This document shows, in pieces, positions 4,539 to 44,409 of a stretch of DNA of 64,000 nucleotides. Under the pieces are notes generated by a model. It did not search any database. It worked only from the letters and a program-made list of their open reading frames with translations, and had not been told where the DNA came from. Source of the stretch: Myxococcota bacterium (GTDB taxonomy: Bacteria; Myxococcota_A; SURF-8; G963663525); the NCBI GenBank assembly GCA_963676915.2, contig CAXXVK010000062.1, positions 1 through 64,000 on the forward strand. The letters run 5' to 3'. Within the stretch, counting starts at the first letter, position 1; every line of letters starts with the position of its first letter. A program made the translations under genes and the position numbers.

Positions 4539-4580
4539 TCCGGGAACTGTCGTTCCTCGATTCCTTGAAATTTCGAAACG

Positions 4581-6408: not shown

Positions 6409-7014
6409 TTGGCAACTCAATCCTTGCGCGAGCGTAAAAAGCAGAAAACTCATGAACGGTTGATCGAAATCGCAACCCGATTGTTTCTGGAAAAGGGGTT
6501 CGAAAACACGACGATCGACGAAATCGTCAAAGAGGCCGAATTGTCTCAAAGAACCTTTTTCCGCTATTTCCCGACCAAAGAATCCATCGTTTTCCGAGAG
6601 CATGACGAGCGGGAAAGGCAGATGCGGAAAAGTATAGAAAAACATTCGCATCTCGCTTCGCCTTTTGAAGCTTTCAAATTGGGACTGATGGAAATGGGTG
6701 ATGATTTCATGGAAAATCGCACCGACATGATGAGGGAATACACCATCGTGATGTCCTCCCGAATGCTGACCGCCTTGGATGTGGAACAAGATTTGAAGTT
6801 CCAGAGAATACTTGGAGAATACCTGCATCATTGGAACGGAAAAGTGTTTTTACCACGTCCCAAAGCCTATATTGTCGCCGGGGCGATTTTCGGGACGATT
6901 CGTGCCGTGATGGAAGAATGGTTCGAAAGCGACCTGGAATTGGATCTGGAAACCATGGGTGGTTATCTCTACCAAGTCGTTGACGTTTTGCAGGCAAGTT
7001 TCCAGCCTGAGTAA
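6409..7014 (+). CDS. TetR/AcrR family transcriptional regulator
   Basis: LRERKKQKT...LFLEKGFENTTIDEIVKEAELSQRTFFRYFPTKE HTH; AAGGAG RBS before a TTG start. Confidence 0.92.
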   Translation: MATQSLRERKKQKTHERLIEIATRLFLEKGFENTTIDEIVKEAELSQRTFFRYFPTKESIVFREHDERERQMRKSIEKHSHLASPFEAFKLGLMEMGDDFMENRTDMMREYTIVMSSRMLTALDVEQDLKFQRILGEYLHHWNGKVFLPRPKAYIVAGAIFGTIRAVMEEWFESDLELDLETMGGYLYQVVDVLQASFQPE

Positions 7015-7105
7015 GCAACTCCTCGCCATTGAAACGAAAAAACGAGAGAACAAAGCGATGTTGTTCTCTCGTTTTTTTTTGAAAACGCTCCATGGAGCGA
7101 AGCCG

Positions 7106-9214: not shown

Positions 9215-9363
9215 GAAAATTCCTTTTGTCGATCGAAATCCGCTATTGGAGATAACCAAAACAGGACTTCGAAAAGAGCAACGCACTTTAGCAACATCCG
9301 AAGCCCCTATCATACCCAAGCCGGGAAAGCAACGCAAAGGTTCTGTTGGACTCCTTGGGATTC

Positions 9364-9564
9364 GGGTGCATCACAAAATAGTGCGACTTTCGTAAAATCC
9401 TCTTTTTTCGTAGCGGCGAGGCGTAAGCCCGCCGTATTTGCTTTTGAAAGTTACTTTTACGCTCCCAATCTCCCTTTTCGGCGGGCTTACGCCTCGCCGC
9501 TACAACCAAATGAATGAATGCTTCAATATTATTGGGCCAATTCGCACCATTTTGTGATGCACCC
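9364..9564. mobile_element. MITE, 201 bp, 23-bp terminal inverted repeats, 9-bp target-site duplication
   Basis: GGGTGCATCACAAAATAGTGCGA (9364-9386) and TCGCACCATTTTGTGATGCACCC (9542-9564), 22/23 match; flanked by TTGGGATTC at 9355-9363 and 9565-9573; no transposase. Confidence 0.85.
9410..9503. repeat. GTAG-type REP doublet (REPIN-like) inside the MITE
   Basis: GTAGCGGCGAGGCGTAAGCCCGCCG (9410-9434) and its perfect reverse complement (9479-9503); each arm is GTAG plus a bulged hairpin. Confidence 0.8.
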
Positions 9565-9738
9565 TTGGGATTCTGGATCGCTTTTATGTCTTTGAAAAAA
9601 GTGTTCCCTCTTGGCGTTGGTTTAGGTATTATCTCAAAATATAGAGATGATGTGACGAAGGAATATTTTTATATTTAGAGAGAGCGGTAAGCAAGGCTTG
9701 CGTGCGGCTTGGTTTATCGTCTTGGGGCAGGGGGCATT

Positions 9739-17409: not shown

Positions 17410-17438
17410 ACAACCCAACGGACGGCTTTTTGCGTATA
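17410..17438 (+). promoter_or_regulatory. Putative ECF sigma promoter (autoregulatory)
   Basis: ACAACCCA-N15-CGTATA just upstream of the sigma RBS; identical boxes and spacing at 21422-21450. Confidence 0.7.
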
Positions 17439-17460
17439 GGTGTATCGAAAGGAGAAAAAG

Positions 17461-18150
17461 GTGACGATTTTTCAGGACAACCGGACGTTATTGAAGGCGT
17501 TTCGAGAGGGACAACCGGAAGCCGTCGCAGAAGTCTTTCAAACGTATGTGCATGATATTTCATCGTTTCTTCAGCGTGGCTTCGTGTTTTCCTCCTCCGG
17601 GCGCTCCTGTCGTTTCGAAGGGTATCGGGATTCCTTCGAGCTTCAGGATGCCGTACAGGAGATTTTCGTCAAGGCGTTTTCGGAACGTGCTCGGATGCAG
17701 TACGACGGACTGAGAAGCTACAAGTCCTACCTGCTTGGTATCGCAAAGAATTTCGTCATCGATGAGTACCGCAAGGTCGAGTCCAAAATGCGTTGGTACC
17801 ATCTGGAAGACTCCGAAGCTACGGTGAACGAGGCATCCGAATGGAAAGCATCAGAACCGGAAACGGAGACCCGGCTGGAATCCGACGAGTTGGGGAAGTT
17901 GATCCAAGGGTTTGTCGCCTCATTGGGGCGCGACGAACGCAAGGTTTTCGATGCCAGGTTTACCCGTGGATTAAGCCAGAGAAACGCTGCTGAGGATGTG
18001 GGAATAACCCGCATGAAACTGCGGTTGATCGAATACAGAATACGATCCAAAGCTTTGAAATTCTTTAAAAATACCGGATATTTGCCCAACGGACTTCACA
18101 TGGATGACAGCACGTTGGGACTGTTGCTTTTGTGTTTGGGGTGCGGCTGA
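17461..18150 (+). CDS. ECF RNA polymerase sigma factor
   Basis: Region 2 DAVQEIFVKAF...YKSYLLGIAKNFVIDEYRK; region 4 ERKVFDARFTRGLSQRNAAEDVGITR; GTG start after AAGGAG. Confidence 0.88.
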   Translation: MTIFQDNRTLLKAFREGQPEAVAEVFQTYVHDISSFLQRGFVFSSSGRSCRFEGYRDSFELQDAVQEIFVKAFSERARMQYDGLRSYKSYLLGIAKNFVIDEYRKVESKMRWYHLEDSEATVNEASEWKASEPETETRLESDELGKLIQGFVASLGRDERKVFDARFTRGLSQRNAAEDVGITRMKLRLIEYRIRSKALKFFKNTGYLPNGLHMDDSTLGLLLLCLGCG

Positions 18151-19067
18151 TGAATTCTTCGTTGAAACGAGCGGAAAAGATGTTTCTCGGGCGCATGTCT
18201 GCTCGTGAAATGAGGACGTTTTTCGAGGATTGCCGCGAAGATCGTCTGCTTCGAAATCGATGGAAACGGCTAAGAAATTTCGAAACGCGCCTGTGTGGCC
18301 GAGAAAATTCTGAGAACCTCACTCATTTCGATACCGAAAGAATGGAAAAAATAGTTCTGCAACGTTCGGGAATACAGCATGAAACCTCGCGTTCATGGAC
18401 TGATGTTTTTGAGATGTTGAGGGGTGATTTCCAAAAAGCGGCCACGGCGCTTGGGGTATTGGCGGTCGGCCTGGTCGTTTGGTTGACGATTCCAGAACCC
18501 ACTGATATTCCAGGAGAATATCCCGTGATTCCTCCAAGCGAATTTCGTGCGAAGGGAGGCGAGACATTCGGCGACGCGGCGTTATATGCCTTTTGCTGGG
18601 ATCGAGAAGAAAATCAGTTACGGCGGATTATCGATTTTTCCTATGCAGATACCGAAAAAGAAAGTGAATGTAACTTGACCGATTCCCTTCAATTCGCCTA
18701 TGCTAACCACAGCGCACAATATAATTATGTATACGTTTTGGGTTGGAACGAAAACGGGGAACGAACGTGGTACTATCCACGACCTTCTGATGACGCAAGC
18801 AAGGAAATAAAAACGCAGGTTGAACCTCAAGCGTGGGAGCAAAGCATTTTCCTTGAGGTCAATCATCGGGAGGGAAGGCATACGATTGCCGCATTGTTCT
18901 CCGAAAAAGCGCTTACGACAGAAGAAGTAAGTAAGGCTTTTGCTGGTATTTCACGAAGTCGCCAAGATCCAATGGAGTGGCCTTCGTTGAAAATTGAGGG
19001 AACAAACGTAATCGAGCAGAGAATTCGATTCAACATTCGTAACGAAGACGAACGGGAAGAACGATGA
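18150..19067 (+). CDS. Putative membrane anti-sigma factor with exported beta-rich (DUF4384-like) domain
   Basis: TGATG coupling to the sigma gene; ~100-aa N-terminal domain, single TM (ATALGVLAVGLVVWLTI), FRAKGG motif, then YVYVLG.NENG..TWYYP...ALFSEK domain. Confidence 0.65.
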   Translation: MNSSLKRAEKMFLGRMSAREMRTFFEDCREDRLLRNRWKRLRNFETRLCGRENSENLTHFDTERMEKIVLQRSGIQHETSRSWTDVFEMLRGDFQKAATALGVLAVGLVVWLTIPEPTDIPGEYPVIPPSEFRAKGGETFGDAALYAFCWDREENQLRRIIDFSYADTEKESECNLTDSLQFAYANHSAQYNYVYVLGWNENGERTWYYPRPSDDASKEIKTQVEPQAWEQSIFLEVNHREGRHTIAALFSEKALTTEEVSKAFAGISRSRQDPMEWPSLKIEGTNVIEQRIRFNIRNEDEREER

Positions 19068-21409
19068 AAACTCGTAAAGTATGTTGGATATTGCTGTTTC
19101 TTGTTGTGGGATGGAACCTGGCGTTGGCAACACAGTGTTTTGCCAAGGAGAAAGTCATCCGCTTTGCAATCATTGCCGCTAGCAATCGGGCACCGCAGAA
19201 AAACATGGAAAAACTCCAGTTTGCGGATGATGACGCAGCGAAAAACTACGAGTTTTTCTCGAAAATTACCGATAAAGCGTATCTTTACACGGTGTTCGAC
19301 GCTACGACACAGAAGATGTTTCCCGACCTGACGAAAAAAACCAAGCCTGCGACGCTTAACCGTCTGGCCTATACGGCTTCGCAAATTGGCAAGAAAATCA
19401 GAAAGTACAAAAAACGAGGCTATACCTCTGAATTTTATCTCGTCTATTCCGGCCATGGAACGCTGCTTCCGGGTAAGGAAGGGGCGGTGACACTAGACCG
19501 TGGCGTATTGACTCGCAGCGATCTGTTCAAAAAAGTGCTCAAAAGGGTGGGAGCCGATTACTCGCACGTTATCGTGGATGCCTGCAATGCGTATTATCTG
19601 GTTCACAGCAAGGGAGAATGGAAAGAAGATCGGGGCGAGAAGCTTGAAAAACCGGTAGAGGAATTCTTCTCGGACGAGGATCTTGAAAACTATCCCGGAC
19701 TGGGTGTCGTGCTTTCGACTTCCAGTGAAGCGGAAACCCACGAGTGGGGCGAATGGTCTTCCGGGATTTTCTCGCATGAAGTTCGTAGCGCTCTGACCGG
19801 TGCTGCGGATATCAACGAGGATCAGATGGTTACGTACTCGGAATTGCTCGCCTTTGTCGATGCTGCCAATTTGAAGGTGAAAGATCCAAAGGCTCGACTC
19901 AACATCTTCGCACGTCCGCCGGCACGAGATCTCAGCCGACCGCTGAGCGTGATCAGTACCTCAAAAAAACTCACTTACCTGTACCTTCCCAAAGATCTCT
20001 CCGGGCGCTTTCATCTCGATGATGACCGAGGAGTCCGTTACGCCGATTTCCATAAAAACAACGAGCAGCAACTCACCGTCGGTCTTGTCCCCCGGAAAAC
20101 GTATTGGCTTCGCGACAAGCGAAACGAATATATCATCACCGCTTCGAAGGGGGATGAAGTCAACGCCAGCCATTTAGAATCCAAAGGACTGTCCATGAAA
20201 AGCAAGGGCGTCGTGGCTGACAATTTCAAGCAATTCCTGTTTTTACAACCGTACGGTCAGTCGTTTTACGAAGGATACATCGCGAAAACGTCGCTTCCTT
20301 CCGTCATTGAAACGAAGGAAGAAGAACCCAAAGTTGCAAGCCTTCCAAAAACCATTCTCAAACCGATTCGTCCCAGTATGGACACCGCTGTTGTGTTCAA
20401 AATCAAACCGGAGCGGGAAGATACCGAGTTGGCGGCGATTTTGTCGGATTTGATCACGGATCAGATTGGGAAACTAAGGGTTGTTAAAAAATTATACAGT
20501 CATAAAGATATCGGCAAGATGCTTGAACTCGCCGAAGAGAAGCAAGCTGTCGATTGCGAATCGGAAATCTGCTATGTGGAAATCAGCAATGCGTTGGGTG
20601 CACAGAAGGTTGTTTCCGGTTCGATTGCCCGACTTGGTAAAACCCGCATCCTCACCTTGTCGCTGGCTGACAACCATTCGGGGCAGGTCGAAGCCCGTGC
20701 CCAGGTGACGATCACCGGTACCGACGAGGAATTGATTCCCGCCACGAGTCTTGTGGTTCAGGAATTGTTCTCGGCCTACGATGTCGGATATCTCGACATG
20801 ACGATGGCTCCTCCACATTCCGTTCTCGAAATAGACGGCATCGAAGATCCGATGGCGGTAGCCAATAGTCCTGTAGCCTTGTATGCCGGTACCTACGAAT
20901 TGAAGTTATTGAAAAACGACGAAATCATTGCCTCGGATACCGTGACGGTCGCTAAAGGGTTGTCGATTCCCTGGCCACTGGAGTTGCTTGATTCCGAGCC
21001 GAATCTGGTTCCCGATCCGGAAGAATCTATCTTCGATGATCCGGAAGTTGCCCAGATTGCTGCGCAAGATACGGGAGCGGGATCGTCCATTTATCGTAAA
21101 GCGGCTTGGGGAACCCTGGCTGGAAGTTTGGCTGTTCTGGCCGGTGGTGGCGCACTTACTTATCTCGCATTGAAAGACCGGAGCGATTGGCAAAGCGACA
21201 CAAGCGTTTCCGACAGCGTCAAGGATCGTTCGAAGCAGGAGTTCTGGGCTGCACAGGGATTGTATGGACTGGGAGGAGCGTTGCTGACGACTTCGATCAT
21301 TCTGTTCGCTGTGGACCCTGGACCGGGTGCGGCGGATGGTCCTGCGTTGACTGTGACACCGATGGCCGGACCGAAATCGGCGGCGATTTCCGTTTCGACA
21401 TCCTGGTAA
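19064..21409 (+). CDS. Exported caspase-like (peptidase C14) protease with TolB-N/CsgG-like, PEGA-like and C-terminal hydrophobic domains
   Basis: Signal peptide; LQFADDDA, catalytic YSGHG and DACN, SGIFSHEVRSALTGAADIN.D..VTYSEL; ATGA overlap with the upstream gene. Confidence 0.85.
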   Translation: MKTRKVCWILLFLVVGWNLALATQCFAKEKVIRFAIIAASNRAPQKNMEKLQFADDDAAKNYEFFSKITDKAYLYTVFDATTQKMFPDLTKKTKPATLNRLAYTASQIGKKIRKYKKRGYTSEFYLVYSGHGTLLPGKEGAVTLDRGVLTRSDLFKKVLKRVGADYSHVIVDACNAYYLVHSKGEWKEDRGEKLEKPVEEFFSDEDLENYPGLGVVLSTSSEAETHEWGEWSSGIFSHEVRSALTGAADINEDQMVTYSELLAFVDAANLKVKDPKARLNIFARPPARDLSRPLSVISTSKKLTYLYLPKDLSGRFHLDDDRGVRYADFHKNNEQQLTVGLVPRKTYWLRDKRNEYIITASKGDEVNASHLESKGLSMKSKGVVADNFKQFLFLQPYGQSFYEGYIAKTSLPSVIETKEEEPKVASLPKTILKPIRPSMDTAVVFKIKPEREDTELAAILSDLITDQIGKLRVVKKLYSHKDIGKMLELAEEKQAVDCESEICYVEISNALGAQKVVSGSIARLGKTRILTLSLADNHSGQVEARAQVTITGTDEELIPATSLVVQELFSAYDVGYLDMTMAPPHSVLEIDGIEDPMAVANSPVALYAGTYELKLLKNDEIIASDTVTVAKGLSIPWPLELLDSEPNLVPDPEESIFDDPEVAQIAAQDTGAGSSIYRKAAWGTLAGSLAVLAGGGALTYLALKDRSDWQSDTSVSDSVKDRSKQEFWAAQGLYGLGGALLTTSIILFAVDPGPGAADGPALTVTPMAGPKSAAISVSTSW

Positions 21410-21421
21410 ATGCGGAAAACA

Positions 21422-21450
21422 ACAACCCAGCGTTGAAAAAACTCCGTATA
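21422..21450 (+). promoter_or_regulatory. Putative ECF sigma promoter for the giant lipoprotein gene
   Basis: ACAACCCA-N15-CGTATA, 62 nt upstream of ATG 21513, matching 17410-17438. Confidence 0.7.
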
Positions 21451-21512
21451 CGAGATTGACAAAAGACAGTTATCGAATTTTCAAGTGAGTTGTTTCTTAC
21501 GGGAAGAAACCG

Positions 21513-24500
21513 ATGGAATTCCGAAAATCTATCGATTCTTGGCATTTAGTGGCGATTTTAGTGGTTTTATGGCTGGCTGGCGGCTGTACTCTGAGCTACG
21601 AACGCAACGAGGGAGAGACCGGTTGCCAGAATGGTGCAAAAACATGCCAGGGCAATCTGAAGATGGTGTGCGTCAATGGTGGCTGGACGCTTTCGAAGGA
21701 TTGCACCGACGATGGGCAAGTCTGCCAGGAAGGGAATTGTGTAGATCCTTCCGAGGGAGACGAAGACCTGGATACGGATGCAACCGATACCACCGATGGG
21801 GACGGTGATCTCGATTTCGTGGATTTGGATGATACGGTTTCGGAAGAGGATGTTGTTGAGACAGACCCGGACCTGGAAGAGGAAGTCGTTGCTAATCCTT
21901 CCGTTATGGCGTTGACGCCTTCCGTTGCATTCGGTTCACAACAGGCTTCGACTACCTGGATAGAAAAAACGATCATTCTTTTCAATAATGGCAACCAGTC
22001 TGTATACGTGAATCAGCCGGTCTTTACCGAAACCGGTTATTTCACCGTACAATTCGATTTCACGGTGAAACAACAGCTCGAACCAACCGACACGCTGATG
22101 GTTACCGCTCGCTGGAAACCCTCGGTCGATCTCGATACAACCGTTCAGTTCGTCTGGTATCCCGTGGGGGATGTAAATACACAGCAAATCGACATTTCGG
22201 CGAAAGGAACCGTGACGCAGCCCGGAGAAAGTTTTACGGGTGTTGTGTACAGCGTCGATGAAGAAGACGGCAGTCGTCAGGAAAAACTGCTTTCCGGCGT
22301 AACGATCCAGATTCAGGGCGTTGAAGAATTGGCGACCACCGATACCAGTGGTGTGTTTTCGTTCTCCGACCTGAACAGTGGATTGGGACAGCGCTGGGTG
22401 ATGGTCAACGGTTTCGGTGCCAGTGGCGGTCCGTATTCCAGCCGCTACGAATTGATCGATTTCGCAACGACGCCTTCCCGTTTGATCGCATTGAGCACTA
22501 TCGGTTCGGGTGGGAATCCCGCCGACGCTGGAGACGGCAATCACCCGGTTGAAGAGCTGGATGGGGCCAACGTCGAAGTCGATCCCGATGGGGTCGCTTC
22601 GGAAGAACGGCGTAAAGACAGTTCGTTGTTGCTTCGTTTCGGGAAAATGAATCTCGAAAGTCTGCCTTTAAGTTTCGATGGGACTCAAGGGATACCTTTC
22701 GACCTTATGTATGTTTATCCATACAACGTGACGTTTACACCTCCTGCGAAGTTGACGGTTCCGGGAACGACGTGGAATGTTGCGGAAAACTCCACGATTC
22801 GTGCCTATCGACTGGTGACCAACGATGTTACCTTCGAATCGTCCTGGACCGGTACGGGACCGATGGTTTACGACGAGTTGACGGAAAGCTGGGGATTCCC
22901 CGATGAAGGTGGATTGCCTGGTGGAGGCGTTTACGTTTTTGTTCTGGAGTCACTGGTAACCTACCACATCACTCTCGAAGTTACGGAAGATGGTACGAGA
23001 GCGCCGTGGGCTACCGCCTTGCGGATGTTCCCGACACCCTATACGATGCTCGGAGCGGCGTCGGGAGACGGTAAATTTTACCACGACGTTGAGGCTGCTG
23101 CCGGTGTGCCGCTTGTCATGGGAGCCTACAAAGACAACCTGTTGGATGGAACATTCGTTTCGGATCAGGTCATCCTTGGCGATGAAACGGATGTAACGTT
23201 TACCGTATTGAAATTGGGAGGCGAAGCGGTAGGCTCCGTAGGTGGTGTCGTTCATTCCTCTTCAAGTGAAGTCTGCGTCGGATGTGCGGTGGACGTGGTG
23301 TCCGGCAATCGCCGGAACCGCGTGTTGACCGACGAAGTCGGGCGATTCGTCGTCGAGGATGTTCCGGTAGGTGAAGTTACCGTGACGGCGTTCAGCCTCG
23401 ACGGTCTGCGCTCCGTTTCCGATTCTCAGGAACTGGCAGATGGCGATTTTGGCGCTGTTCGACCTGTTGTTGCCCACCGGAGACACCATACCGCCGAGAA
23501 TCGTCGGTTCTCTCCCGTCGAACGGTCAAAAACAGGGTTTCTCCCGGTGTGGTGTTGCGCGTGCGTTTCAGCGAACCCATGAATCCGGCGATGTTCTCGT
23601 CTACGAATGTTGCGCTTTTTCCGACGTGGCGATGACAGCAACCTCCTTGCTGTAACGGGTACTATTTCCCACGAAGACAACCAGCAGACGCTATTGTTCA
23701 CACTCCCGATACTCCCTTGAAACTTGGATACGATTTCACTTTGGAACTTGGAACGGGACTGACCGATGCCAACGGTGTTGCACTAGCGGAGGCCGTGTCG
23801 ATTCTTTTCCGTACCCAGGCGCCGGACTGCTCGGAAAGTTCAACGACTTGCAATGTAGGATACTGGGACTTTTCCACGCACAATTGCAAAACCTTGGCCC
23901 AAAGTGACATTCCTTGCGACGATTTGGTTGCTTGCACCCAAAACGATACCTGCGACAACGGAACCTGCGTCGGTACACCCAACCATTCGCTATGTGATGA
24001 TTCATTGGACTGCACCGACAATCTCTGCGTGGCGGGAACCGGCTGCAACTTCCCGATTTTCGAGAAACAAATGCGTTATCGACGAGACCCTGTTTCGACG
24101 ATGGAGATGAAAAGCAGGGGAGTGAATGCCAGGCGTGCGATTCAAATTTCCCGAGAGTCTGGACGAACAAAACGGACGGAAATGCCTGTGGAGAACAGGA
24201 CCAGTGCGTTTCGGGTTCCTGTGTGGACTGTTTCGATGTCAGTGGGTGCGCGGATCTTGAAGACGATGGCCTTGAATGCACCGAACCGGCTTGTGGAGGT
24301 AATAACAGTTGCATGCACAACCCTCTGGCGCATCAGGGTGAAGTCTGTACGGACGACGACTTGTTCTGTACGAAAGATCTTTGCGGAACGGATGGCGAAT
24401 GTCATCATGAAGAACTCAATGCCGATACCTGCCTGATCGATGCTACTTGCTACAATGGAGGCGAAACTACCGATGCCGATGGTTGTCTGGTGTGTAGTCC

Positions 24501-27500
24501 CACGAATGCAACGACCACGGCTTCCTACAATAATGATGTGATCTGCCAGGAATCCGACGACGAAAACCCCTGCACCGACAATCTTTGCAAGCAGGGTGTA
24601 TGCGAGTTTATCGAGGACGATACCAACACCTGTGACGATGGCTTGGGCTGCACCACGACAAGTTGCGTTGAGGGAGATTGTCACGTCGATAGCATCGATA
24701 CCGGTTGCCTGATCGACGAAAGTTGTGTGGGAACAGGGACATTGGAAGGATTAAACGGCGATGCCGTATGTAACGAGTGTAACCCGGAGATTACGAATAT
24801 CGATTGGAGTCCCATCAGTGAATCCACTACTTGCAATGACGGCAACTCGTGCAGTTATGGAGATCAATGTGCTTACAGGCTCATGTGTAGGAACGGAGTA
24901 CACCTGTCCCGATCATAGCGATTGTGACGGAGAAGGTGGCTGCGATTGCCACATTGGGTACGATGGAGACCAGTGCGACCAGTGCGCTACAGATTTTACC
25001 GGTTATCCCAACTGCGTACCCATCCAAGAATATGTCGAGGTGGAGGTTTCGTTTGCCGGTCATGACTCGATGGATGTCGATTTGTACTGGATGTTGCCGA
25101 ACGATACCGAATGCTCGGAAAGCGACCTCCTTGGCGGTGTTTGCGATATTGGTGAAGCCAATGGCAGCGTTCATATGCAAACGAAACCCCCGATGCGTGA
25201 ATCCGGAACCACGGAATCGGTCATGCACATCGATCCGCCGACCGGGACAATTCATTGTCACGGTGAAATTCGACGAGAACTGCCCCGACAGTGCGGGAAA
25301 TGACCCGAATTGTCTCTGTGACTTCGACGGAAGAAACCGAATTCACCATTACATTCAAGGTCGATGGCGAGGTGTTGAAACAGTGGACCGATGTCCTGAT
25401 GCGCAACAAGGAGGATCAAGTCAAATGGCGGTGGGTGAGAGGTTCCGACGCATGGAACGAACCCGAACTGACAACTGACCTGTGCCCGGAAGGCGTTTGT
25501 AGCGGTCATGGTGACTGCGACGACCTGACGGGGGGCGTGCTCCTGTAATAACTATTTTGATGGAAGTTCCTGTGACGCCTGTAAACGATGACGCGCCGGG
25601 AGTGTATCCCAATTGCAGTGTCGATCTTTGTGATCCCGATCCTTGCAACGGTCATGGAGCCTGTGATTCGACAGATGGTTCCTGTACCTGCGACAACGAT
25701 TACATGAATGCGGATTGTTCTGCCTGCGTGGAAAATTACGTGGGTTACCCGGATTGTGTCTCAGACTCGGATGATGACGGCATTCCCGAAGGCGATGGTT
25801 CCAACCCTTGCACGGGAGGCGGCACGACCGCTTGTGACGACAACTGTCCTAACGATTCCAACTCCGATCAGGCCGATATGGACTCCGACGGCATCGGCGA
25901 CGTTTGCGACCGGCGGATCGTGATGGCGATGGTCTGGCGAACGAGGTTGAAACGAATACGGGAACCTTTACCAGCGCTACGGATACCGGCACCGACCCCG
26001 ACAACTCCGACTCGGATAGTGATAGTTACAACGATGGTTGGGAAGTGAATAACGGCTACAATCCGACGAACGGGGAAAGCAATCCCGTGGATGATCCCGA
26101 TCGAGACGACATCCCCAAAGGCGACGGTTCCAATCCCTGTACGGGTGGAATCACGACCAGTTGCGACGATAACTGTCCCGCTGTTTCCAACTCCAACCAG
26201 GCCGATATGGACTCCGACGGCATCGGTGATGTTTGCTCGATCCCCGACCGTGACGGCGATGGTCTGGCGAACAGTGTAGAAACCGATACGGGTGTTTTTG
26301 TCAATGCTTCGAATACCGGCACCGACCCCGATGACGCAGACTCGGATGATGATGGATACAATGACGGTTGGGAAGTGGACAACGGCTATGATCCCAACAA
26401 CCAGGAAAGCAATCCCGGAGAATGACCCGGACCAGGATTCCATTTCTTCCGGCGACGGAAACAACCCTTGCACGGGAGGTGCAACCACCAATTGTGACGA
26501 CAACTGTCCCGCTGTTTCCAACTCCAACCAGGCAGACATGGACTCCGACGGTATCGGCGACGTTTGCGATCCCGACCGTGACGGCGATGGTATTGCTGAA
26601 GGAGATGGTTCCAATCCTTGTACGGGTGGTGATACTACGGACTGTGACGACAACTGCCCTGCCGATTACAATTCCGATCAAGCAAACATTGATTCGGATA
26701 ATTTCGGCGACGTTTGTGACCCGGACCGCGACAACGATGGTATTGCTGAAGGAGACGGTTCCAATCCTTGCACAGGTGGCGTAATTGACGGTTGCGACGA
26801 CAACTGCCCGGATGTCGCCAACCCCGACCAAGCGGATGGCGAAGCCGATGGCGTCGGAAACGCCTGTGACCCGTATCCCTGTACATCCGGTATTTGTAAC
26901 ACTGGTTGGTGTGACGGAGATGCTTGCGGACGTCCGGCACGAAATTGCTCGGAGCTTCATAACCTAAATCTGATATTGGGTGATGGGGTCTATGTGATCG
27001 ATCCCGATGGTCCTGGCACAGTTACGGCTTTGCCCGCACAGTGCGACATGACCACGGATGGCGGCGGCTGGACTCTGGTGCTCAATTATTTGCATCAAGG
27101 CGGAACGAATCCAGATCTCTATGCTCGTAGCGTGGATATGCCTCAGTTGGGAAGCAATACTCTGGGCGACGATGAAGGTGGAACGTCATATTGGGGTCAT
27201 ACCGGAAACAGTTTGTTTGCCTTGTTCAATGCTACGGAGATTCGTTTCTACGGTGAGACTAGCGCACACGGGCGCGTGATCCACTTCAAAACGGATGATC
27301 CGGGCACGATCGAGTATTTTTCAACGGGGCTTGGCGATGCGTCGGGACTCGTCGGTGATTTCACTCCGCTCGACGGACATTCGGCCAACTTGCCTCAAGC
27401 CGCGACGCATTTTTGGTCCGACGGTGGCGATCTGGCCATGACCTCATACCCGTTTTACACTCATGGTACGTATCACTGGTCGATAAAGGGCGATGATAGA

Positions 27501-30500
27501 CGTTGGGAAGTGGATGACTCCCATGATAGTTCCGCCTACCACACCTTGCATCGCATCTGGATCAGAACGAACCCGGATCAAGACGAAGACGGCATTCTTA
27601 CAAATGACGACGATGGCGTGGAAGATCCCTGCACCGGCGGAAACACCACCGATTGCGACGACAACTGCCCGAACGACAGCAACCCCAACCAGGAAGATCT
27701 GGACTCGGACGGCATCGGCGATGCCTGCGACGATTGGACAAGTATTGAGGCCGGGACTTTCTGGATGGGTTCGCCGGATGGGGATTGCCCGGCGGGATAT
27801 CCGGGGGAATGCGTTTACGAACCAGGCAGGAATACCCATGCGAGTGAAGAGCTTCACGAGGTGACACTTACTTACGATTTCGAGATGCAGACACACGAGA
27901 CAACGCAATCCCAGTGGCAAGTCGCCTTTGGAAACAACCCCAGCTATTTTGGTCCCAATGGCGACGGCGCAGATTGCGGAGCTGATTGCCCTGTGGAAAA
28001 AATAAATTGGTACGAAGCAGCGGCGTATGCGAACTGGCTATCGGGAGAACATGGTCTGGAACCCTGTTATGTGTTGAGCAATTGTACGGGGGAAGCGGGT
28101 GTTAGCTGTGGGTCTTCAGACGGTTATTGCCTAACAAACACATACGTGTGCGATGTGTCCCTTGCCAGTGGACACTCCAAGCCTCAAGAATGCGAAGGAT
28201 ACCGATTGCCGACAGAAGCCGAATGGGAATATGCAATCCGCGCCGGCAATCAATACTCGCCATTTTATCAGAGCGAGGGAAACGACGGTTCGCTGACGGA
28301 GACGGATTGTACACCGGATGCCAATGCAACTCAGATCGGTTGGTATTGTGCGAATTCAGGTAACACGATGAATCCTGTCGGTGGAAAAGATGCGAACGCT
28401 TGGGGCCTTTATGACATGGCTGGAAATGCTTATGAATGGGTCTATGACTATCATCTGGCAGCGCCTGAAACGGATGTGAGCACCGATCCTATCGGAGCAT
28501 CGAGCAGCGCTTACCGTAGTTTCAGGGGAGGCAGTTTTTCCGATAACTCCACCTTACTGCGTTCCGGATTCCGGAACTTGCTTCTGCCGGCAAACTGTAA
28601 TCGTGACATTGGTTTCCGTCTTGTGCGTACCCTATTCCCTACTACCTGCGAAGCCAACACTTGTAACAGCAATGGAACCTGTGACGATACCAGCGGCTAT
28701 GCAATTTGTACTTGCAATGCAGGATTCACCGGGCAGGATTGCAGCGCGTGCGCCGAAGGATACGAGGGCTACCCGGATTGCCAGCTTGTCTACACGCCGG
28801 GGTTCGTCTCCATCGACGCCGGAACCTTCTGGATGGGCTCGCCGGATGGGGAGGATCCCTGTCCTTTAGATTCAGGCGACTGTACGGCTGAGACCGGGCG
28901 AAATACCGATGGACGGGAAACCCTGCACGAAGTCACCCTTACGTATGATTTCGAAGTCATGGATCATGAGATCACGCAAGGGGAGTGGTTCGCGGCCTTC
29001 AGTAACAATCCCAGCAATTTCGGCCCGAACGGAGACGGAAACGACTGCGGCGACGACTGCCCGGTGGAGCGGGTAAATTGGTATGAAGCTCTTGCCTACG
29101 CCAATCATCTCTCCACCGAAATGGGCCTGACGCCCTGCTACACTCTCACCGCTTGCACGGGTACCGTGGGAGCTGGATGCGCAACTGATGCGCTTTATTG
29201 CAACAGCGGAACGTACATCTGTAGCGTTGCTTTAAACGGAGTCAACCAACCTCAGGCCTGCGAAGGCTACCGTCTTCCCACCGATGCGGAATGGGAATAC
29301 GCCGCCCGTGCCGGTAGTCAGACGGCCTACCATACGGCAGAGGGGATGGATGGAACTATTCTCGCCATCACGGGTCAGGATACGAATCTGGATCAGATTG
29401 CATGGTATGATTATGATTCCGACAGCACTCCCCATCCAATTAAACAGTTGAAGGAAAATGGTTGGGGTTTATTTGATCTCAGTGGAAACTTGGTTGAGTG
29501 GGTTTGGGATCCCTTCTGCAGTGACATTACTGGATTGGGTACAGATCCCGATGGAAGTGTTTGCGGAGGATCTGAACGTGTCAAGCGGGGTGGATATTGG
29601 AGTGATAACGCAAGGTATTGCCGATCAGCCAATCGAAGAAGCGACCCACCGGCATACCGCCGACAAAGCATCGGTTTCCGGTTGGTTCGCACCCTGCACC
29701 CCGAAAGTTGCGTTTCCAGTACTTGCAACAGCAACGGAACCTGTGACGACACCGGCGGCTACGCCCTATGCACCTGCAATGCAGGCTTCGCCGGGCAGGA
29801 TTGCAGCACCTGTGCCGAAGGCTACGGCAGCTACCCGGATTGCCAACCTGTAGACCCCGATGTGGACGGTATCTTAACCGACGATGGTGACGGTGTGAAC
29901 GACCCCTGCACGGGTGGTGCAACGGAAAACTGCGACGACAACTGCCCGAACGACAGCAACTCTAACCAGGAGGATCTTGATTCCGACGGCATCGGAGATG
30001 TATGCGACCCAGACCGTGATGGCGATGGTCTGCTCAACGAGGTCGAGACGGAAACGGGCACGTATGTCGATGAAAACGACACCGGCAGCAGCCCGGATCT
30101 CGCCGATTCGGATAGCGATGGCTACGACGACTCACGAGAAGTGGCCGCAGGTTCCGATCCAAACAGCGATCAATCCACCCCGGATGATGACCACGACGGC
30201 GTATCCAACGCGGACGATACCTGTCCGGCGGTGTGGAATCCCGACCAGGTTGTTAGCGATAACTGCGGTTTTTGGGCGTCCGAAGTGCAATTCGATGGCG
30301 CTTACGCGGCACGACGCGAAGTGGTCTTGGGAGAAAACGGCGGTGATTCCACCTGGAGACGTACCAACGAGCCGGTGGAAATTCCACTGGCCAACGGCAT
30401 CCTGGATGACTCTGTGATCGGCTATTGGAAACTCGATGGCGGCGAAGCTCGGGACTACTCGGGGAACGGATTCCACGGCGAAGTGATCGGGGCGCAGTCC

Positions 30501-33500
30501 TCCACGGGTCGTTTCGGTGATAGCGATGGTGCAATGGTATTCTCCTACACCGACAACGACGAGCGTATCGAACTACCCAAAGTACTTTCCGGCACATACA
30601 CTCAACTGACGGTTAGTGTCTGGTTCTACGTGCCTAGCGACAGAACACGAACCAACCTGTCCTTGTTCCGTTACGACGCGGGCTACAACGGGATAGGCAT
30701 AGAAGTAAGAGGAGATGGATTGATTGAGATGGGTATCGGTTGGCAACGGTACGGATCATTTCAATTCATCTCATTTTCCTCTTGGCCAGGATTTCTACGA
30801 CCGCTGGCACCACTTGGCGTTCGTGTATCGGGACGAAGGATATAAGTATTATCTCGATGCCATACCACAGGTTCCCAGTTATGAAAACAACACGCCGCTT
30901 CCTGAATTCGACGCCGACATGAATTTCCAGAATTTCGGTCTCGGCAACATCGTTTTCCTCGAACTCGACCGACAGTTCACCGGTTCTGTCGATGAAGTAA
31001 TGATCTTCGGACGGGCTTTGAGTGTCGAGGAACTCCGTGCTTACGTTGCATCTAACGCACCTTATGGAACCACGACCGTCCCTGGTGCTCAAGCGGACTT
31101 CGACGACCTGCGCGTGACTCAGAAAAGCAACGTGATTACGGCAGCTTCCAGCGAGCACCTTACGCCGCACGAAATCCTCGGTCCGCGTCCGCATTCCGAC
31201 ACGGCTTGTCCTACGGACTTCGATAGCCTATCGGTGGATCAGATTCCACACATCGCCGACCGCGAAGATTTATGCGGCGTGGTGGGCTACTGGAAACTGG
31301 ATGGAAACTCCCGAGATTCCAGTGGAAACGGCTACGATGGGACGAATAACGGCGCGAGTACGACTCGTGGACGCTTTGGAGATGACGCCGGAGCGATGGC
31401 ATTTTCCTACGAAGATAACGACGAATACATCAATCTCCCGAAGATGTTGTCCGGTACGTATACCGAAATGACCGTCGAGACGTGGGTGTACGTGCCTGGA
31501 GACACCACCAGAGGTACTTTGTCCGTATTCCGCTATCAGGCTGCATACAATGATATCACCATCGATTTTCACCCATCCTAATCGACGCTTCGCAACGACT
31601 TTCGGTGGCAACGGAGTAGATCAATACAATTATTACTACTGGAACGTGGACGAAAGCATTTACGACCGCCTGGCATCATCTGGCACTTGTGTACAAAAAT
31701 GAGGATCATTTCATGTATTTGGACGGCCAGCCGTTGACTGGAGAACTTGGATACAATCAAGCGCTCCCTGAATACGACGCCGATCTGAATTTCGCAGCGG
31801 TGGCTATCGGTAATTTGTCGGATCAACTCGGCATGAACTGGCAGTTTACCGGCTCTATCGATGAAGTCCTCATCCACTCGGTCGCCAAGTCGCCCGAGTA
31901 CATCTACCGACGTGCCAACCCCGGTGTGCCGACCTTGCGTTTCCTGGCACACACCGAACCGGAGGACACCGTGGGTGACAGCTCCGGCGTATGGCCTTGG
32001 ATGTACTATGCTTTGAACTGGGGGAACGAGGTTCCCATGCATCCGGTGCAGATGGCCCACCAAAACTACGATGAAAACAGCCGCTTCTGTTACGGTCTGC
32101 TCAACGAATGCACCGGCTATGCAGGCTGGTGGCGGTTCAACGAAGGTGCGGGAACCATCGCCGTGGATTCGAGTGCGAATAAGAATAACGGAGATTTTTA
32201 TAGCGATCCCGAATGGGTTGCAGGATATGAAGGGACTGCGCTGGAACTTGACGGGAGTAACGATCACGTTCGAATTCCCGACCACGATAGTTTGGATCTG
32301 GCGACGTATTCCTTAGAGGCGGTATTCTGGAAGTACAGCAGTCAAGACCAGATGAATATCATCGTCAAGGGTATGCCGGGAGACCCTGCCAATACGAACT
32401 ATTTGCTTGAGTATCACGAGGAAGACACCAACTTCCTTCGTGTGGGCTTCGAGTACAATTCCGGAGCGAATGCCATCATGGATTATGACGCCTCTCTGCC
32501 CAATGATTGGACCGAGATTCAAAATACCTATGATGGTGAGTCGCTCTATGCAACTATCAACAATGACGAATCATTGGCAATGTCCATGCTTCAGTCCAAC
32601 ACGCCCGGCACTTCAACCACGGGTTTGAGTCTCGGCGGAGCTTACAATCAGGACTTCCCGGTGGATGGTCTCATCGATTCCATTCGCATCATGAACCGCG
32701 CCCTGGCTCCCGACGAATTCCTGCACTATCCGCTGGCAAGTATAGCGCTGGGAGATCTTACGACCTCCGATGGAACCACCGCGCTGGACTCCGACGGCGA
32801 TGGTATCCCCGACGACGGTGACGGCTCGCTGGCTTCGGGAGATAATCCCTGCATGGGACCGGACGACACCGATTGCGACGACAACTGCCCGACCGTGGTC
32901 AATCCCGACCAGGCTGACGCCGATGGCGACGGATACGGCGACTTCTGCGACGGGTGGGTGGCTATCCAAGCCGGAACCTTCTGGATGGGTTCGCCGGATG
33001 GGGTGAGCTGTCCGGCGGGATATCCGGGAGTCTGCAATGCAGAGGATGGGAGAGTCGCCGGAGAGGAACCCTTGCACGAAGTGACGTTGACCTACGATTT
33101 CGAGATGATGCGATACGAAACGTTGCAGGGCGATTTCGAAGACTTGATGAGTTGGAACCCGAGTAATTCGGAATACCTCGGTCCATTGAAATCCGTAGGG
33201 AACGTGAGTGGATACGATGCTTTAGCCTATGCTAACCAATTGTCGATACAAGCAGGCTTAACGCCCTGTTATGTGATGTCGGAAGTCGTCTGTGAGGATG
33301 CTTCCTCGCAGGGGGCCAACTACATGGCTTGTATCAACGAGACACAGGGCGGTATCCAATCGGCGACTGTTGATTTTGCCGACAATGCTGTCAAACCGCA
33401 GCAATGTGAAGGATACCGGTTGCCGACCGAAGCCGAGTGGGAATACGCCATTCGTGCAGGGAACCAATACTCACCGTTCTACCTCAGTGATGGCAATGAT

Positions 33501-36170
33501 GGAAGCATTACATACACCGATGGGGAAACCCTCGATCCGAATCTGAATCAAATCGCGTGGTATGCCGCAAACTCAGATTTAGAGACCCATGAAGCGGGTC
33601 AAAAAGAACCGAACGATTGGGGTTTGTACGATATGAGCGGTAACCAGTGGGAGAAAGTCTGGGATAACTTCTGCGCCGCTTATGCGACCGGAGTCGATCC
33701 CGATGGGAGTGAATGCGAAAGTTCGACACAGGTCATACGTGGAGGAAGTATTCATGATCCTGCACTCAACTGCCGATCGGCCAGTCGGGAGGACTACTCG
33801 TTTGGGACGCGCATGATCGGTATGGGTTTCCGGCTGGTAAGGACGTTGCAAGACCCTGAAAATCCTGATCGAGACAGCATCCCTGCTGACGACGGCGACG
33901 GTACCAGCGACCCCTGCGCGGATGGAAACACTGCAAGCTGTGACGACAACTGCCCGGACGATTACAACCCAGGTCAGGAAGACATGGATGCCGATGGCAT
34001 CGGCGACATCTGCGACCCCGACCGGGATGGCGATGGTCTGGACAACGATGTGGAAACCGATACCGGTGTGTTCACCGATGCTAACGATACCGGAACCAAC
34101 CCTGATGCAGTCGACTCGGACGGGGATGGCTACGATGATGGTTGGGAAGTGGCCAACGGCTACGATCCCAACGATTTTGGAAGCAACCCGTATCGTGACG
34201 AATGGGTGGCTATCGACGCCGGAACGTTCTGGATGGGCACGCCGGATGGGGATTGCCCGGCGGGATATCCGGGGACGTGTATCACCGAACCGGGAAGAAA
34301 CTCCAACGAAGAACTCCACGAAGTGACGTTGACCTACGATTTCGAGATGATGCGGTATGAAGTGACTCAGGCAGAGTGGCAAGCGGCATTCGGGAACAAT
34401 CCGAGCTATTTCGGTCCAAACGGTGATGGAACCAACAGCGGCGATGACGGTCCTGTAGAACGAGTTAATTGGTACGAAGCTTTGGCCTATGCCAATTGGT
34501 TGTCACAACAGGAAGGGTTGACGCCTTGTTACGAGTTGACCGAATGCGTTGGTACCTTGGGTGGCGGCTGTGTTTCTTCTCAACCCCATTGCAACAGTAT
34601 CCAACTACAACTTTATGAATGCACTGCAACCCTTGCAGAGGGCTTTTCGAAACCTCAGGAATGTACCGGTTATCGATTGCCTACCGAAGCGGAATGGGAA
34701 TATGCCATTCGTGCGGGAAATCAATACACGACGCTGTACACGAGTGAAGGCAACGACGGTTCGTTAACCTCGACGGATTGCACGCTGGACAACAATCTCG
34801 ATCAAATCAGTTGGTACTGCGGAAATTCGGATTCCAGAGCGCATTCCAAAGGTGGCAAGGAGGCCAATGCCTGGGGGCTTTACGACATGTCCGGGAACAT
34901 CAGTGAGTGGATATGGGACTATTACGAAGAAGACTACGGTACCGATGCCGTTACCGATCCGGTCGGGGAAACGTCGTTCTGGGCGCACGATGTACGAGGT
35001 GGTACGTTTGAGTATGAAGCAAGGATGGTACGTTCTGGCTATCGAAACTATATCACCACAGCAAATGGCTCTTATCACATCGGTTTCCGGCTGGTTCGTT
35101 CGTTGCACCCAGAAAGTTGCGATTCCAATACCTGTAACAGCCACGGCACCTGTGACGATACTAGCGGTTTTGCCCTATGCACCTGCAATACAGGCTTTAC
35201 CGGGCAGGATTGCGGTACTTGTGCCGAAGGTTACGAGGGATACCCGGATTGCCAACTTGTTGGCACTCCGGGATTTGTCTCCATCGACGTCGGAACGTTC
35301 TGGATGGGTTCGCCGGATGGGGATTGTCCGACGGGATATCCGGGGACGTGTATTGTCGAGTCGGGACGAGACGCAGAAAGTGAAGAACTTCATGAAGTGA
35401 CCTTGACCTACGATTTCGAGATGCAAGCGCTTGAAGTGACGGAGAGTGAATTCGAGAGGGTGATGAGTTGGAACCCGGTGGATACGTTCGATTCGGTTTG
35501 TACCTATGGCTGTGGAGATGACCATCCGGTGAAGTCCGTGTCCTGGTACGACATGCTGGCCTATGCTAATCAATTGTCTTTGGAAGCGGATCTGACGGCG
35601 TGTTATGTGTTTTCGAATGTACAGTGCGTGGACGACTCGACCCATGGCTCGGATGCCATGGCCTGTATGGATCCCACCCATAGCGGTATCAAGTCGGCGA
35701 CGGTGACGTTGGCAGGGGATGCGACGAACCCGCAGGATTGCGAGGGATATCGTTTGCCTACTGAGGCGGAGTGGGAATATGCAGCGCGTGCGGGTACAAC
35801 AACGGCTTTCTATAATGGGGGTATCACTTACACGGGAAACTCGCCCATTGACCCGAATCTGGATTTGATCGGCTGGTATGGCGGGAATTCAAGCAGTACG
35901 TCACATCCTGTTGGCAGCAAAAATGCGAATGACTGGGGTTTGCACGATATGAGCGGCAACGCATGGGAGTGGACCTGGGACTGGTTCCAGGGAGCTTATG
36001 AGACCGATGTGGCGACCGATCCTGTTGGACCAAGTACTGGCTCGGAACACGTCTTACGTGGCGGCAATTGGGGTTTTTACACGCAGCACTGCCGATCGGC
36101 GTTCCGAGATGGCTACACGCCCGATAGTCGCGCGAGCCACTTCGGTGGCCGCATAGTCCGCACCTTGTAA
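21513..36170 (+). CDS. Giant modular surface lipoprotein (~4900 aa reconstructed across about a dozen frameshifts): Ig-like, Cys/EGF repeats, TSP3 Ca-binding repeats, fibrinogen-like, 3 LamG and 5 FGE-sulfatase domains
   Basis: Lipobox AGGC; overlapping ORFs from 21513 to 36170 join inside recognisable domains (DTIPP...RFSEPMN...LFTPDTPL; DNCP..N.DQ.D.DGIGDVCD; CDMTTDGGGWTLV; YRLPTEAEWEYA...GFRLVR; GYWKLDG); no internal signal peptide seen. Confidence 0.7.
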
Positions 36171-43969: not shown

Positions 43970-44409
43970 GCTTTCCTCCTTTGAGATTGACCCTTTCCAT
44001 GGATTCGCCAGCACTTTTTCAACCGCCTATGCAGTTTGAGAAACAGGCGAAACCAACAAACAACATCTTCACAAAATCAGGTAAACAATCTAAAGCAAAC
44101 CCCGAACAAAGATTGTTTGATTATTGTAAATTGTAAGCAATTGTATCGTCTTAAGATTTTCTGTCAAGATGAAAATTTTCTGACAGAAGGTGCCTTTTTT
44201 ACAAAAAATGTAACAATTACTATGGGTTCAGTGCAGCGCTTTGTTGGCGTAAAGAGAGCAATTTTCTCAAACATCAGTGGGAGTGACACCAAATTTCCGA
44301 AATGATTTCCAGGAAGTGGAAATTGTGCTACAATACCCGCTTGTATTTTCTCTTTTTCCATTGAGACAACGTTCCATTTTTTCGATACGTGTTGCAACGA
44401 GCGACCGGA

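Follow-up and report, generated by a model that had tools for sequence, protein, structure and literature searches.

An ECF sigma, anti-sigma and exported C14 caspase-fold gene trio that shares a predicted promoter motif with a giant lipoprotein gene in a Myxococcota bacterium

Introduction

In classical regulated intramembrane proteolysis (RIP) of the anti-sigma factors that control extracytoplasmic function (ECF) sigma factors, as in the RseA/DegS/RseP and RsiW/PrsW/RasP systems, a single-pass anti-sigma factor is cut on its outer side by a site-1 protease, an M50 protease acts as site-2 protease and the sigma operon is autoregulated. The classical site-1 enzymes are serine or metallo-proteases that are encoded elsewhere. 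To our knowledge, the site-1 step is unknown for most ECF sigma groups, and the roles and substrates of bacterial caspase homologs are largely unknown outside a few CRISPR-linked defense systems. Here, we analyze a locus in a 64,000-nucleotide stretch of DNA from an uncultured Myxococcota bacterium (GenBank assembly GCA_963676915.2, contig CAXXVK010000062.1, positions 1 to 64,000 of the forward strand; referred to as the window), in which genes for an ECF sigma factor, an anti-sigma-like protein and an exported C14 caspase-fold protein are followed by a gene for a giant modular lipoprotein. It is well supported by the sequence data that a predicted ECF-type promoter motif is shared by the sigma operon and the gene for the giant lipoprotein. 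The route that is proposed here for this locus would have the single-pass anti-sigma factor, the outer-side site-1 cut, the M50 site-2 protease and the autoregulated sigma operon in common with classical RIP, while a clan CD cysteine protease encoded in the operon itself would act in place of the classical site-1 enzymes.

The closest known system is DdvS/DdvA from Myxococcus xanthus, a member of the same phylum (PMC11506125, PMC6061681; PDB 8rlz, 8rot). DdvA is described as an anti-sigma factor with a fused periplasmic TPR-CHAT module, and its authors propose, without validation yet, that it cuts itself in the juxtamembrane linker in a manner resembling a site-1 protease and is then processed by RseP (PMC11506125). 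The two systems have in common that the ECF sigma factor is paired with a single-pass ZAS-type anti-sigma factor and that a periplasmic module of the caspase family (clan CD) contains a His-Cys dyad, and the N-terminus of DdvA is the best, although weak, PDB match of the family profile of the window anti-sigma-like protein (E 0.014). However, the TPR-CHAT protease module of DdvA is fused and has an incomplete active site, whereas the window encodes a separate C14 protein without TPR. The anti-sigma-like protein carries a DUF4384-like beta-sandwich in place of the TPR-CHAT module; it may function in a similar way to DdvA but stands outside the DdvA family. Moreover, the DdvS regulon is a CBASS/CRISPR defense island, whereas the predicted output here is a giant surface lipoprotein.

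For the cytoplasm, caspase-family proteases with sigma complexes as targets have also been described. In the type III-E ‘Craspase’ system (bioRxiv 10.1101/2022.08.17.504292), Csx30 binds the sigma factor RpoE/CASP-sigma and is cleaved by the TPR-CHAT protein Csx29. There, the substrate of a caspase-family protease is an inhibitor that binds a sigma factor, and the cut is made in or beside the C-terminal beta domain of this inhibitor. In one group of Csx30 proteins this domain is DUF4384, which is weakly matched by the exported domain of the window anti-sigma-like protein. The Craspase differs in being cytoplasmic and RNA-triggered, in using CHAT and not C14 with a Met at P1 and in operating without a membrane-spanning anti-sigma factor; the two are likened by architecture, not by homology. 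Similarly, the C14-annotated PCaspase of a type III-B CRISPR system from the myxobacterium Haliangium ochraceum is encoded near a sigma factor, which it cleaves among other proteins (bioRxiv 10.1101/2023.06.23.546230). It is cytoplasmic and activated via SAVED-CHAT and cyclic oligoadenylate, the sigma factor itself is the substrate, and the system has neither an exported domain nor an anti-sigma partner. Furthermore, EACC2-caspase gene neighborhoods with ECF sigma factors are known (Kaur et al., eLife 2021, PMC8195603); these are conflict systems in which EACC2 and TRADD-N occur together with a DUF1822 TPR protein, and they lack the arrangement of an exported C14 protein with an anti-sigma factor. 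Finally, DUF4384 was described as an accessory domain of cyanobacterial orthocaspases (PMC7475262).

Our literature searches retrieved no description of an operon composed of ECF sigma, anti-sigma and exported C14 genes. In the ECF classification of Casas-Pastor 2021, the terms ‘caspase’ and ‘C14’ are absent from the main text and the terms ‘caspase’ and ‘Peptidase_C14’ from that part of the supplement that was considered. An earlier annotation of the window, made from its sequence without database searches (the sequence-only reading), had stated that no mechanistic description of such a gene trio is known. This holds for the trio itself and has to be tempered in view of the published fused DdvA and of the cytoplasmic caspase-family proteases acting on sigma complexes.

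Gene Order and the Shared Predicted Promoter Motif

The window is contig C62 of a 74-contig assembly of 5.18 Mb, which is 90.8% complete, and has a GC content of about 52%. Three consecutive genes on the plus strand encode the ECF sigma factor, the anti-sigma-like protein and the C14 protein, with overlapping stop and start codons. The stop codon TGA of the sigma gene (18148-18150) overlaps with the ATG of the anti-sigma gene at 18150 to form TGATG at 18148-18152, and the end of the anti-sigma gene at 19067 overlaps with the ATG of the C14 gene at 19064 to form ATGA at 19064-19067. The translational coupling that had been proposed for the three genes can therefore be read directly from the DNA, and the trio itself is intact in the window. 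The sigma factor (229 aa, 17461..18150, plus strand) scores 68.4 bits for TIGR02937 (cut-off 42.9) and 30.7 bits for Sigma70_r2 (cut-off 24), which bears out its assignment as an ECF sigma factor, while Sigma70_r4 with 20.5 bits stays slightly below its cut-off of 24.1. In line with this group, the protein consists of sigma-2 and sigma-4 regions only and passes the curated cut-off, and a predicted bipartite promoter and a presumably co-transcribed anti-sigma gene belong to its operon. The longest open reading frame (ORF) of the sigma gene, 17440-18150, starts inside the motif region; the likely start codon is the GTG at 17461, because it aligns with the ATG of the ortholog in a genome of the same genus (G001), and an AAGGAG box precedes it.

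The promoter motif was derived by eye from a comparison of the regions upstream of the sigma and giant genes in the window and in G001. Its extended form, CAACCCA-N15-CGTATA, is present at all four places with unrelated spacers. In the window, both copies are on the plus strand, the first at 17411..17438, 22 nt upstream of the likely sigma start, and the second at 21423..21450, 62 nt upstream of the ATG of the giant gene. ECF promoters as a rule have AAC in their -35 and CGT in their -10 box. The core motif AACCC-N16-CGTATA occurs in the whole window at 17412-17438 and 21424-21450 only, even if one mismatch is allowed, and a search of both strands of the 5.18-Mb genome resulted in two exact matches, both at this locus. 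The suggestion that the same promoter motif precedes both transcription units was thus confirmed, the two sites being the only exact pair in the genome.

Several observations weigh against reading these sites as promoters of this sigma factor. As the motif was derived from the very sites that were counted, the match as such is circular. Shuffled versions of the window contained on average 0.45 matches with one mismatch allowed, and two or more matches occurred in 9 of 100 shuffles; about one to two chance matches are expected genome-wide, and a reversed control pattern has one match in the genome. Moreover, no terminator-like site was found on the plus strand between the protease and giant genes, where the scan matches were not above those of shuffled sequences, so that read-through from the sigma operon into the giant gene is possible. 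The evidence for the motif therefore has to be sought in its rarity in the genome, in position and strand, in the boxes that are kept while the spacers vary and in the apparent co-variation of the sites between lineages.

In a genome of the same order (G009), AGCCCAAATC-N11-CGTAT is present at both sites, ahead of the sigma as well as the giant gene, with a -35 box differing from that of the window. A further related locus (L023) has a TCGCCG...CGTA pair with a spacing that is off by one, the second copy of which precedes a gene for a CarboxypepD_reg protein. The -35 part hence varies between the lineages and is identical at both sites within each genome. G001 contains four matches to the core, two of which are orthologous to the window sites, one is inside a gene and one is intergenic. 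This third copy apart from the orthologous pair (L046, G001:C1:2905500-2912500, at 1177) is situated upstream of an ORF at 1713-7001 on the plus strand, which encodes another lipoprotein of at least 1751 aa with EGF-like domains and without BLAST similarity to the giant gene; with this lipoprotein as query, a search of the window's genome gave no counterpart.

A coincidence, or a duplicated spacer, could in principle also account for the two copies, and beside the circular derivation and the control matches it would fit that the shorter G009 pattern is unspecific, with 11 genome matches compared to 7 for its control, and was discarded as a genome-wide discriminator. We regard this as very improbable, given that each copy is located between genes on the coding strand, in promoter distance to a start codon, that the boxes are kept in G001 although the spacers differ, that the -35 box co-varies at both G009 sites, that L023 has a similar pair and that the third G001 copy precedes a giant lipoprotein gene as well. 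The shared use of the motif as promoter by the sigma operon and the giant gene is thus the preferred reading, and the proposal that the output of the switch is the giant surface protein is well founded in the genome-unique motif pair and in its sites being kept in G001 and G009.

If one mismatch to the extended motif is allowed, four further sites are present in the own genome, compared to three for the control; two of these are inside genes and two are intergenic. The intergenic copies are located at position 1239 of L049 (G000:C72) and at position 955 of L050 (G000:C11); one of them is upstream of an HTH_3 regulator and a rubrerythrin gene, the other upstream of two unknown large ORFs (553 and 917 aa). 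They were not counted as regulon members, as their number is no higher than for the control and they may be due to chance.

Conservation of the Gene Trio

An alignment of four orthologs of the C14 protein retrieved 21 related C14 loci from a species-representative genome collection, all of them from metagenome-assembled genomes (MAGs); a scan of genome contigs with the single protease protein had resulted in 170 pattern matches, none of which was confirmed. The MAGs are mostly labeled as Myxococcota, Myxococcales, Polyangia, Nannocystineae, Bradymonadales or ‘Deltaproteobacteria’, one as Bdellovibrionales and two as bacterium or proteobacterium only. In 20 of the 21 loci, profile searches of the upstream DNA revealed an anti-sigma-like ORF immediately in front of the C14 gene, and in 18 of the 21 an ECF sigma gene before this ORF; the latter corresponds to 18 of the 19 loci with enough upstream DNA, as L025 and L037 have less than 800 nt upstream of the C14 gene. 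At L034, neither a sigma nor an anti-sigma-like gene is present and a VWA protein is encoded instead. The anti-sigma profile was built from 13 and the sigma profile from 10 of these loci, which match by construction; the loci that were not used for profile building, 7 for the anti-sigma and 8 for the sigma profile, match too. Furthermore, seven more distant paralogous loci have an anti-sigma-like gene in all seven cases and a sigma gene in six. The survey of gene neighborhoods that the sequence-only reading had called for therefore shows a conserved cassette, and its remark that similar trios occur in myxobacteria proved right for the Myxococcota.

One of these seven paralogous loci is a second, more distant trio in the window's genome (L039, G000:C54:58000-72000, at 5289-9849), which has a Peptidase_C14 score of 50.6 bits and is followed by a gene for a metallo-beta-lactamase (MBL)-fold protein.

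The neighbors of the trio are variable. Giant or CarboxypepD_reg-containing lipoproteins adjoin it in the window, in G001 and in L018, L019, L020 and L023, and are encoded upstream of it in L022, while a pectate lyase (L021), a methyltransferase (L031) and a small ComEA-like HhH protein (L026) are found elsewhere. The N-terminal 700 aa of the giant protein, used as query in phmmer and in a hidden Markov model (HMM) built from three sequences against all ORFs of the 21 loci, found the G009 ortholog only, and the CarboxypepD_reg-bearing neighbors at other loci have just this common domain in common with the giant protein. As the trio is constant while its neighbors vary, we assign the protease to the switch rather than to the giant gene, which, judged from these searches, is a lineage-specific output that is conserved within the order only and lies outside the conserved core.

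This variability also bears on the idea that the protease is an effector of the regulon, which matures, sheds or trims the giant lipoprotein or other surface proteins and is encoded in the sigma operon for co-expression only. Such a role would fit the position of the protease gene directly upstream of the giant gene without an intervening terminator-like site and the modular build of the giant proteins, which offers many linkers. It is improbable nevertheless, since the trio recurs beside unrelated neighbors or none, including the pectate lyase, MBL-fold, methyltransferase and ComEA-like proteins, since the N-terminal region of the giant protein has no detectable homolog in the other 20 related loci and since the constant partner of the protease gene is the anti-sigma gene and not the downstream gene.

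The protease family is large. Among 1.84 billion clustered proteins, it has 12,662 representatives at E <= 0.001, of which a threshold of 1e-10 leaves 4360 and a threshold of 1e-30 leaves 1185. Its distribution within the phylum is patchy (25 of 151 sampled genomes at E <= 1e-25).

The Anti-sigma-like Protein

The second gene of the trio encodes a single-pass anti-sigma-like protein of 305 aa (18150..19067, plus strand). The AlphaFold2 (AF2) model shows a cytoplasmic N-terminal helical bundle (residues 3-72), a transmembrane (TM) helix at about 94-113 in agreement with a hydropathy peak at residue 97, a linker of low confidence and an exported beta-sandwich (143-297), as had been anticipated in describing it as a single-TM protein with an exported domain. 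The top matches of the family profile against the PDB are all anti-sigma factors, although weak (E 0.014-0.6), with RsiW, MucA, RseA and ChrR following DdvA in this order. Among 15 relatives, zf-HC2 matches four and DUF4384 five, and the exported part, a beta-sandwich of 160 aa, has weak DUF4384 matches. A Foldseek search with the anti-sigma model resulted in nothing at E <= 0.001 and in generic beta-sandwiches only. Similarly, longer or fused forms of the exported domain were not found at E <= 0.001, which is weak evidence as a single sequence served as query.

The helical anti-sigma domain followed by one TM helix agrees with class I (ZAS-type) anti-sigma factors. Against this assignment stands that the HxxxCxxC zinc motif of the class is replaced by FEDCREDR in the window protein, while it is kept in the anti-sigma factors of L019, L023, L030, L032, L033, L036 and L042. 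This loss makes the window protein a zinc-less member of class I.

All 22 anti-sigma sequences, the paralogous subfamily included, share a basic residue (K135 in the window, K or R in general), and in 20 of them the next residue is Gly. K135-G136 is part of a segment (135-139) with a predicted local distance difference test score (pLDDT) below 50, at a distance of about 22 residues from the TM helix and shortly ahead of the first strand at 143, suggesting that it might be the scissile bond in a flexible juxtamembrane linker.

The Exported C14 Caspase-Fold Protein

The third gene encodes the exported C14 caspase-fold protein (781 aa, 19064..21409, plus strand), which starts with a hydrophobic signal-like segment. 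In the AF2 model, a caspase domain (about 31-290, pLDDT >90) with the dyad H131/C174 is followed by a beta-sandwich (300-375), a loop with K381-G382, a long disordered linker, and alpha/beta and PEGA-like domains. The C-terminus is formed by two hydrophobic helices and a terminal hairpin that ends with Trp. In a Foldseek search with the N-terminal domain, MALT1, AtMC9, caspase-3, Kgp (gingipain K) and Yca1 ranked on top (E 1e-5 to 1e-4, probability 0.9-1.0), a set that includes plant and yeast metacaspases, and legumain was also among the matches. The caspase-hemoglobinase fold and the contexts of the catalytic residues, SGHG and DAC, are those of clan CD. H131, C174, D55 and D57, the latter two being acidic residues next to strand 1, are invariant in 19 of 19 aligned protease sequences. 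Taken together, the signal-like segment, the fold and the invariant dyad agree with the earlier description as a signal-bearing C14 protease with an intact His-Cys dyad.

Moreover, the protein carries a canonical EF-hand loop, DxNxDxxxxxxE, at 249-260, of which D249, D253 and E260 are present in all 19 sequences. A search with the family profile matched calcium-binding proteins from Entamoeba at their EF-hand loops (E 3.9e-5). PDB profile searches with the protease alignments returned EF-hand loops and a weak GSU0716 match only. A motif resembling that of the anti-sigma linker, S-[K/R]-G, is located in a loop of the protease (377-385) with pLDDT <50; its basic residue is present in all 19 sequences and its Gly in 18. 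Metacaspases and orthocaspases cleave after Arg or Lys (PMC6426788). For the C14 protein, the invariant acidic D55-D57 and the conserved [K/R]-G motifs are hints at a proteolytic activity and P1 preference of this kind.

Other findings qualify the assignment of this protein. The Pfam family PF00656 (Peptidase_C14) scores it with 17.3 bits, below the cut-off of 21.4, while 15 homologs in related and paralogous loci reach 23.2-50.6 bits. The two C-terminal hydrophobic helices are modeled with low confidence, the last residue is F, W or Y in 13 of the 19 family members, and one relative has a match to the barrel model OMP_b-brl, so that the protein may be anchored in either the inner or the outer membrane.

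The middle alpha/beta domain (443-575) matches no Pfam model at E <= 0.01. For this domain as well as for the C-terminal hydrophobic hairpin (660-775), dozens of matches to further proteins with a length of 170-650 aa were obtained in the own and in related genomes.

The Giant Lipoprotein Gene

The giant gene (21513..36170, plus strand) starts with an ATG at 21513, from which a lipoprotein-like signal ending in ...VVLWLAGGC is encoded; by inspection, a lipobox Cys is present in the window (LAGGC) as well as in G001 (LAAGC), G009 (FGAC) and G012 (LAGC). The domains found in the pieces of the gene and in the intact orthologs comprise CarboxypepD_reg, Big_5, EGF-like, TSP3, fibrinogen-like GGGWT, Laminin_G_3 and several FGE-sulfatase domains, and the gene contains internal repeats. 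“Lectin-rich modular surface lipoprotein” is a fair description of the predicted product, and the earlier term ‘multi-lectin’ is likewise fair at the domain level in view of the Laminin_G_3, FGE-sulfatase and fibrinogen-like GGGWT domains, which occur beside EGF, TSP3 and CarboxypepD_reg.

The gene had been presented as a lipoprotein gene of about 4900 aa. The lipoprotein-like start holds, the single ORF does not. The coding signal of 21513-36170 moves through all three frames, resulting in a chain of ten plus-strand pieces at 21513-23582, 23636-24436, 24001-24918, 24755-25303, 24891-25478, 25515-26048, 25853-26425, 26292-30845, 30724-31581 and 31689-36170. In contrast, the G001 ortholog, on an assembly of four contigs, is a single open frame of 4298 codons from stop to stop (about 4281 aa from the ATG), and the G009 ortholog with 2932 aa is intact. 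A nucleotide alignment to G001 reveals at least nine lasting frame changes in 14.7 kb, which speaks against a functional output gene; several of them are single extra bases in short runs, e.g., at 23450, 23534, 24067, 24090 and 30740. As a whole, the observations of the sequence-only reading thus stand for the trio and the shared motif and fail for the giant gene as one ORF.

If these frame breaks are real, the output gene would be a decaying pseudogene and the system would be losing its function. In favor of this stand the number of the breaks and the unbroken state of four further large window ORFs (2282, 1679, 2110 and 1164 aa, together 21.7 kb). However, two pieces of about 4.5 kb are still open and the trio is intact. 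Furthermore, the only public sequencing run with most of the stretch, which holds 87% of the sampled words, has a word depth of only about 2-3 over the giant gene (no RNA run was listed for the stretch), and independently built contigs of this run end exactly at the indel sites 21504/5, 23449 and 30740. Other genes are split as well. The aromatic amino-acid lyase gene of the window (884-3077, minus strand) is divided into the ORFs 884-1999 and 1608-3077, which correspond to the two halves of the Pfam model, and an M50 (RseP-like) protease gene on another contig (L052, G000:C43:194800-198000) is spread over two frames (548-1309 and 1365-2600), a further sign of indel errors in the assembly. We therefore consider decay of the gene quite unlikely and lean towards errors of a low-coverage assembly, or a strain mixture, as the origin of the breaks. 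A dN/dS comparison of the window with G001 was uninformative because dS was saturated (about 2, or undefined).

Contigs of the run X1 join window 27700-28800 to 33900-35400 and skip about 6.2-6.6 kb, and direct repeats link the same stretches. This suggests that the two 4.5-kb pieces are paralogous repeat units and that the population may also harbor a shortened version of the gene. Three of the large window ORFs are of note in their own right. Two giant exported-type proteins, one of 2282 aa with ASH/HYDIN Ig-like domains (9709-16557) and one of 1679 aa with beta-helix and PKD domains (37615-42654), are encoded on the two sides of the locus without the promoter motif, and an ORF of 2110 aa at 44389-50721 with an N-terminal response-regulator receiver domain is situated in a region whose AT skew is unusually strong (0.25-0.35).

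Proposed Mechanism

We propose that the locus is a self-contained envelope signaling cassette with its output gene. The ECF sigma factor would be held at the inner membrane by the zinc-less class I (ZAS-type) single-pass anti-sigma factor with its exported DUF4384-like beta-sandwich. Upon a signal, the periplasmic, membrane-anchored and possibly calcium-dependent C14 protease, which may first process itself at the K381-G382 loop, would cut the anti-sigma linker after K135, before G136. The remaining short stub would be removed by the M50 site-2 protease of the genome, and the released sigma factor would transcribe from both AACCC-N16-CGTATA promoters, i.e., its own operon in a positive autoregulation and the giant lipoprotein gene. 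A match to the M50 family was obtained in the window's genome, and by the general size rule for site-2 proteases a stub left after a cut at K135 is short enough to be a substrate.

The steps of this scheme differ in strength. The gene identities, the coupling, the fold, the conserved residues and the motif pair are established at the level of sequence and predicted structure. That the sigma factor drives both motif-bearing promoters is strongly inferred, and we regard it as probable. The cut of the anti-sigma factor by the C14 protease and the removal of the stub by the M50 protease, for which synteny, motifs and analogy speak, are possible but short of probable, and the explanation as a whole is put forward tentatively, at somewhat less than an even chance. 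A complex prediction with residues 28-440 of the protease and 112-305 of the anti-sigma factor gave no answer, with a score of 0.02 compared to a mark of 0.32. Against the proteolytic step it has to be considered that the [K/R]-G motif could be purely structural. For the interpretation given in the sequence-only reading this means that the half concerning the output is well supported computationally, while the half concerning the signaling, with the caspase as sensor and site-1 protease, is plausible.

Alternatively, the C14 protein might take part in the switch without cutting, as a sensor for a ligand or calcium, as an RseB-like guard on the DUF4384-like domain or as a substrate that is itself regulated, with an unlinked site-1 protease doing the cut. 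The synteny data fit such a role equally well, and the EF-hand loop suggests sensing. Moreover, it was shown for DdvA that mutation of the His or the Cys left the resting state unchanged and that no autoproteolysis occurred on phage infection (PMC11506125). However, the dyad and the adjacent acidic residues are invariant in 19 of 19 sequences, which is not expected for a pure binding protein, and a conserved basic residue with Gly is present in flexible segments of both proteins. A non-cleaving role is in our judgment doubtful, and cleavage of the anti-sigma linker by the C14 protease is kept as the preferred, tentative reading.

A wider version of this reading would be a trans-envelope loop. 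A surface event, maybe a contact with prey, kin or polysaccharide that is perceived via the giant lipoprotein, would switch on the calcium-binding C14 protease, and the sigma factor that is freed by the cut at K135 would increase the production of switch and adhesin alike. In this case, DUF4384 would represent a general caspase-substrate module that is common to this system and Csx30, and the about 1200 clusters of the family would constitute a widespread, hitherto undescribed class of site-1 proteases. We consider this wider version unlikely, though worth stating.

Significance

What is new at this locus is the genome-unique promoter pair, which ties a sigma/anti-sigma/C14 switch to a giant lipoprotein gene. 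The protease and its presumed substrate, which has a candidate scissile bond, are separate proteins, and the promoter is short, unique in the genome and usable as a reporter. With these three elements the idea that was proposed for DdvA and awaits validation becomes testable in trans with simple point mutants. As the protease family is large, with 1185 representatives at the strictest threshold applied, and is present in 25 of the 151 sampled genomes, a result obtained here would carry over to many organisms. Moreover, a giant lectin-rich lipoprotein as output hints at a regulated surface recognition in this predatory or social phylum. If the proposed mechanism is true, the locus would provide a bacterial caspase with a defined physiological substrate and a readable output.

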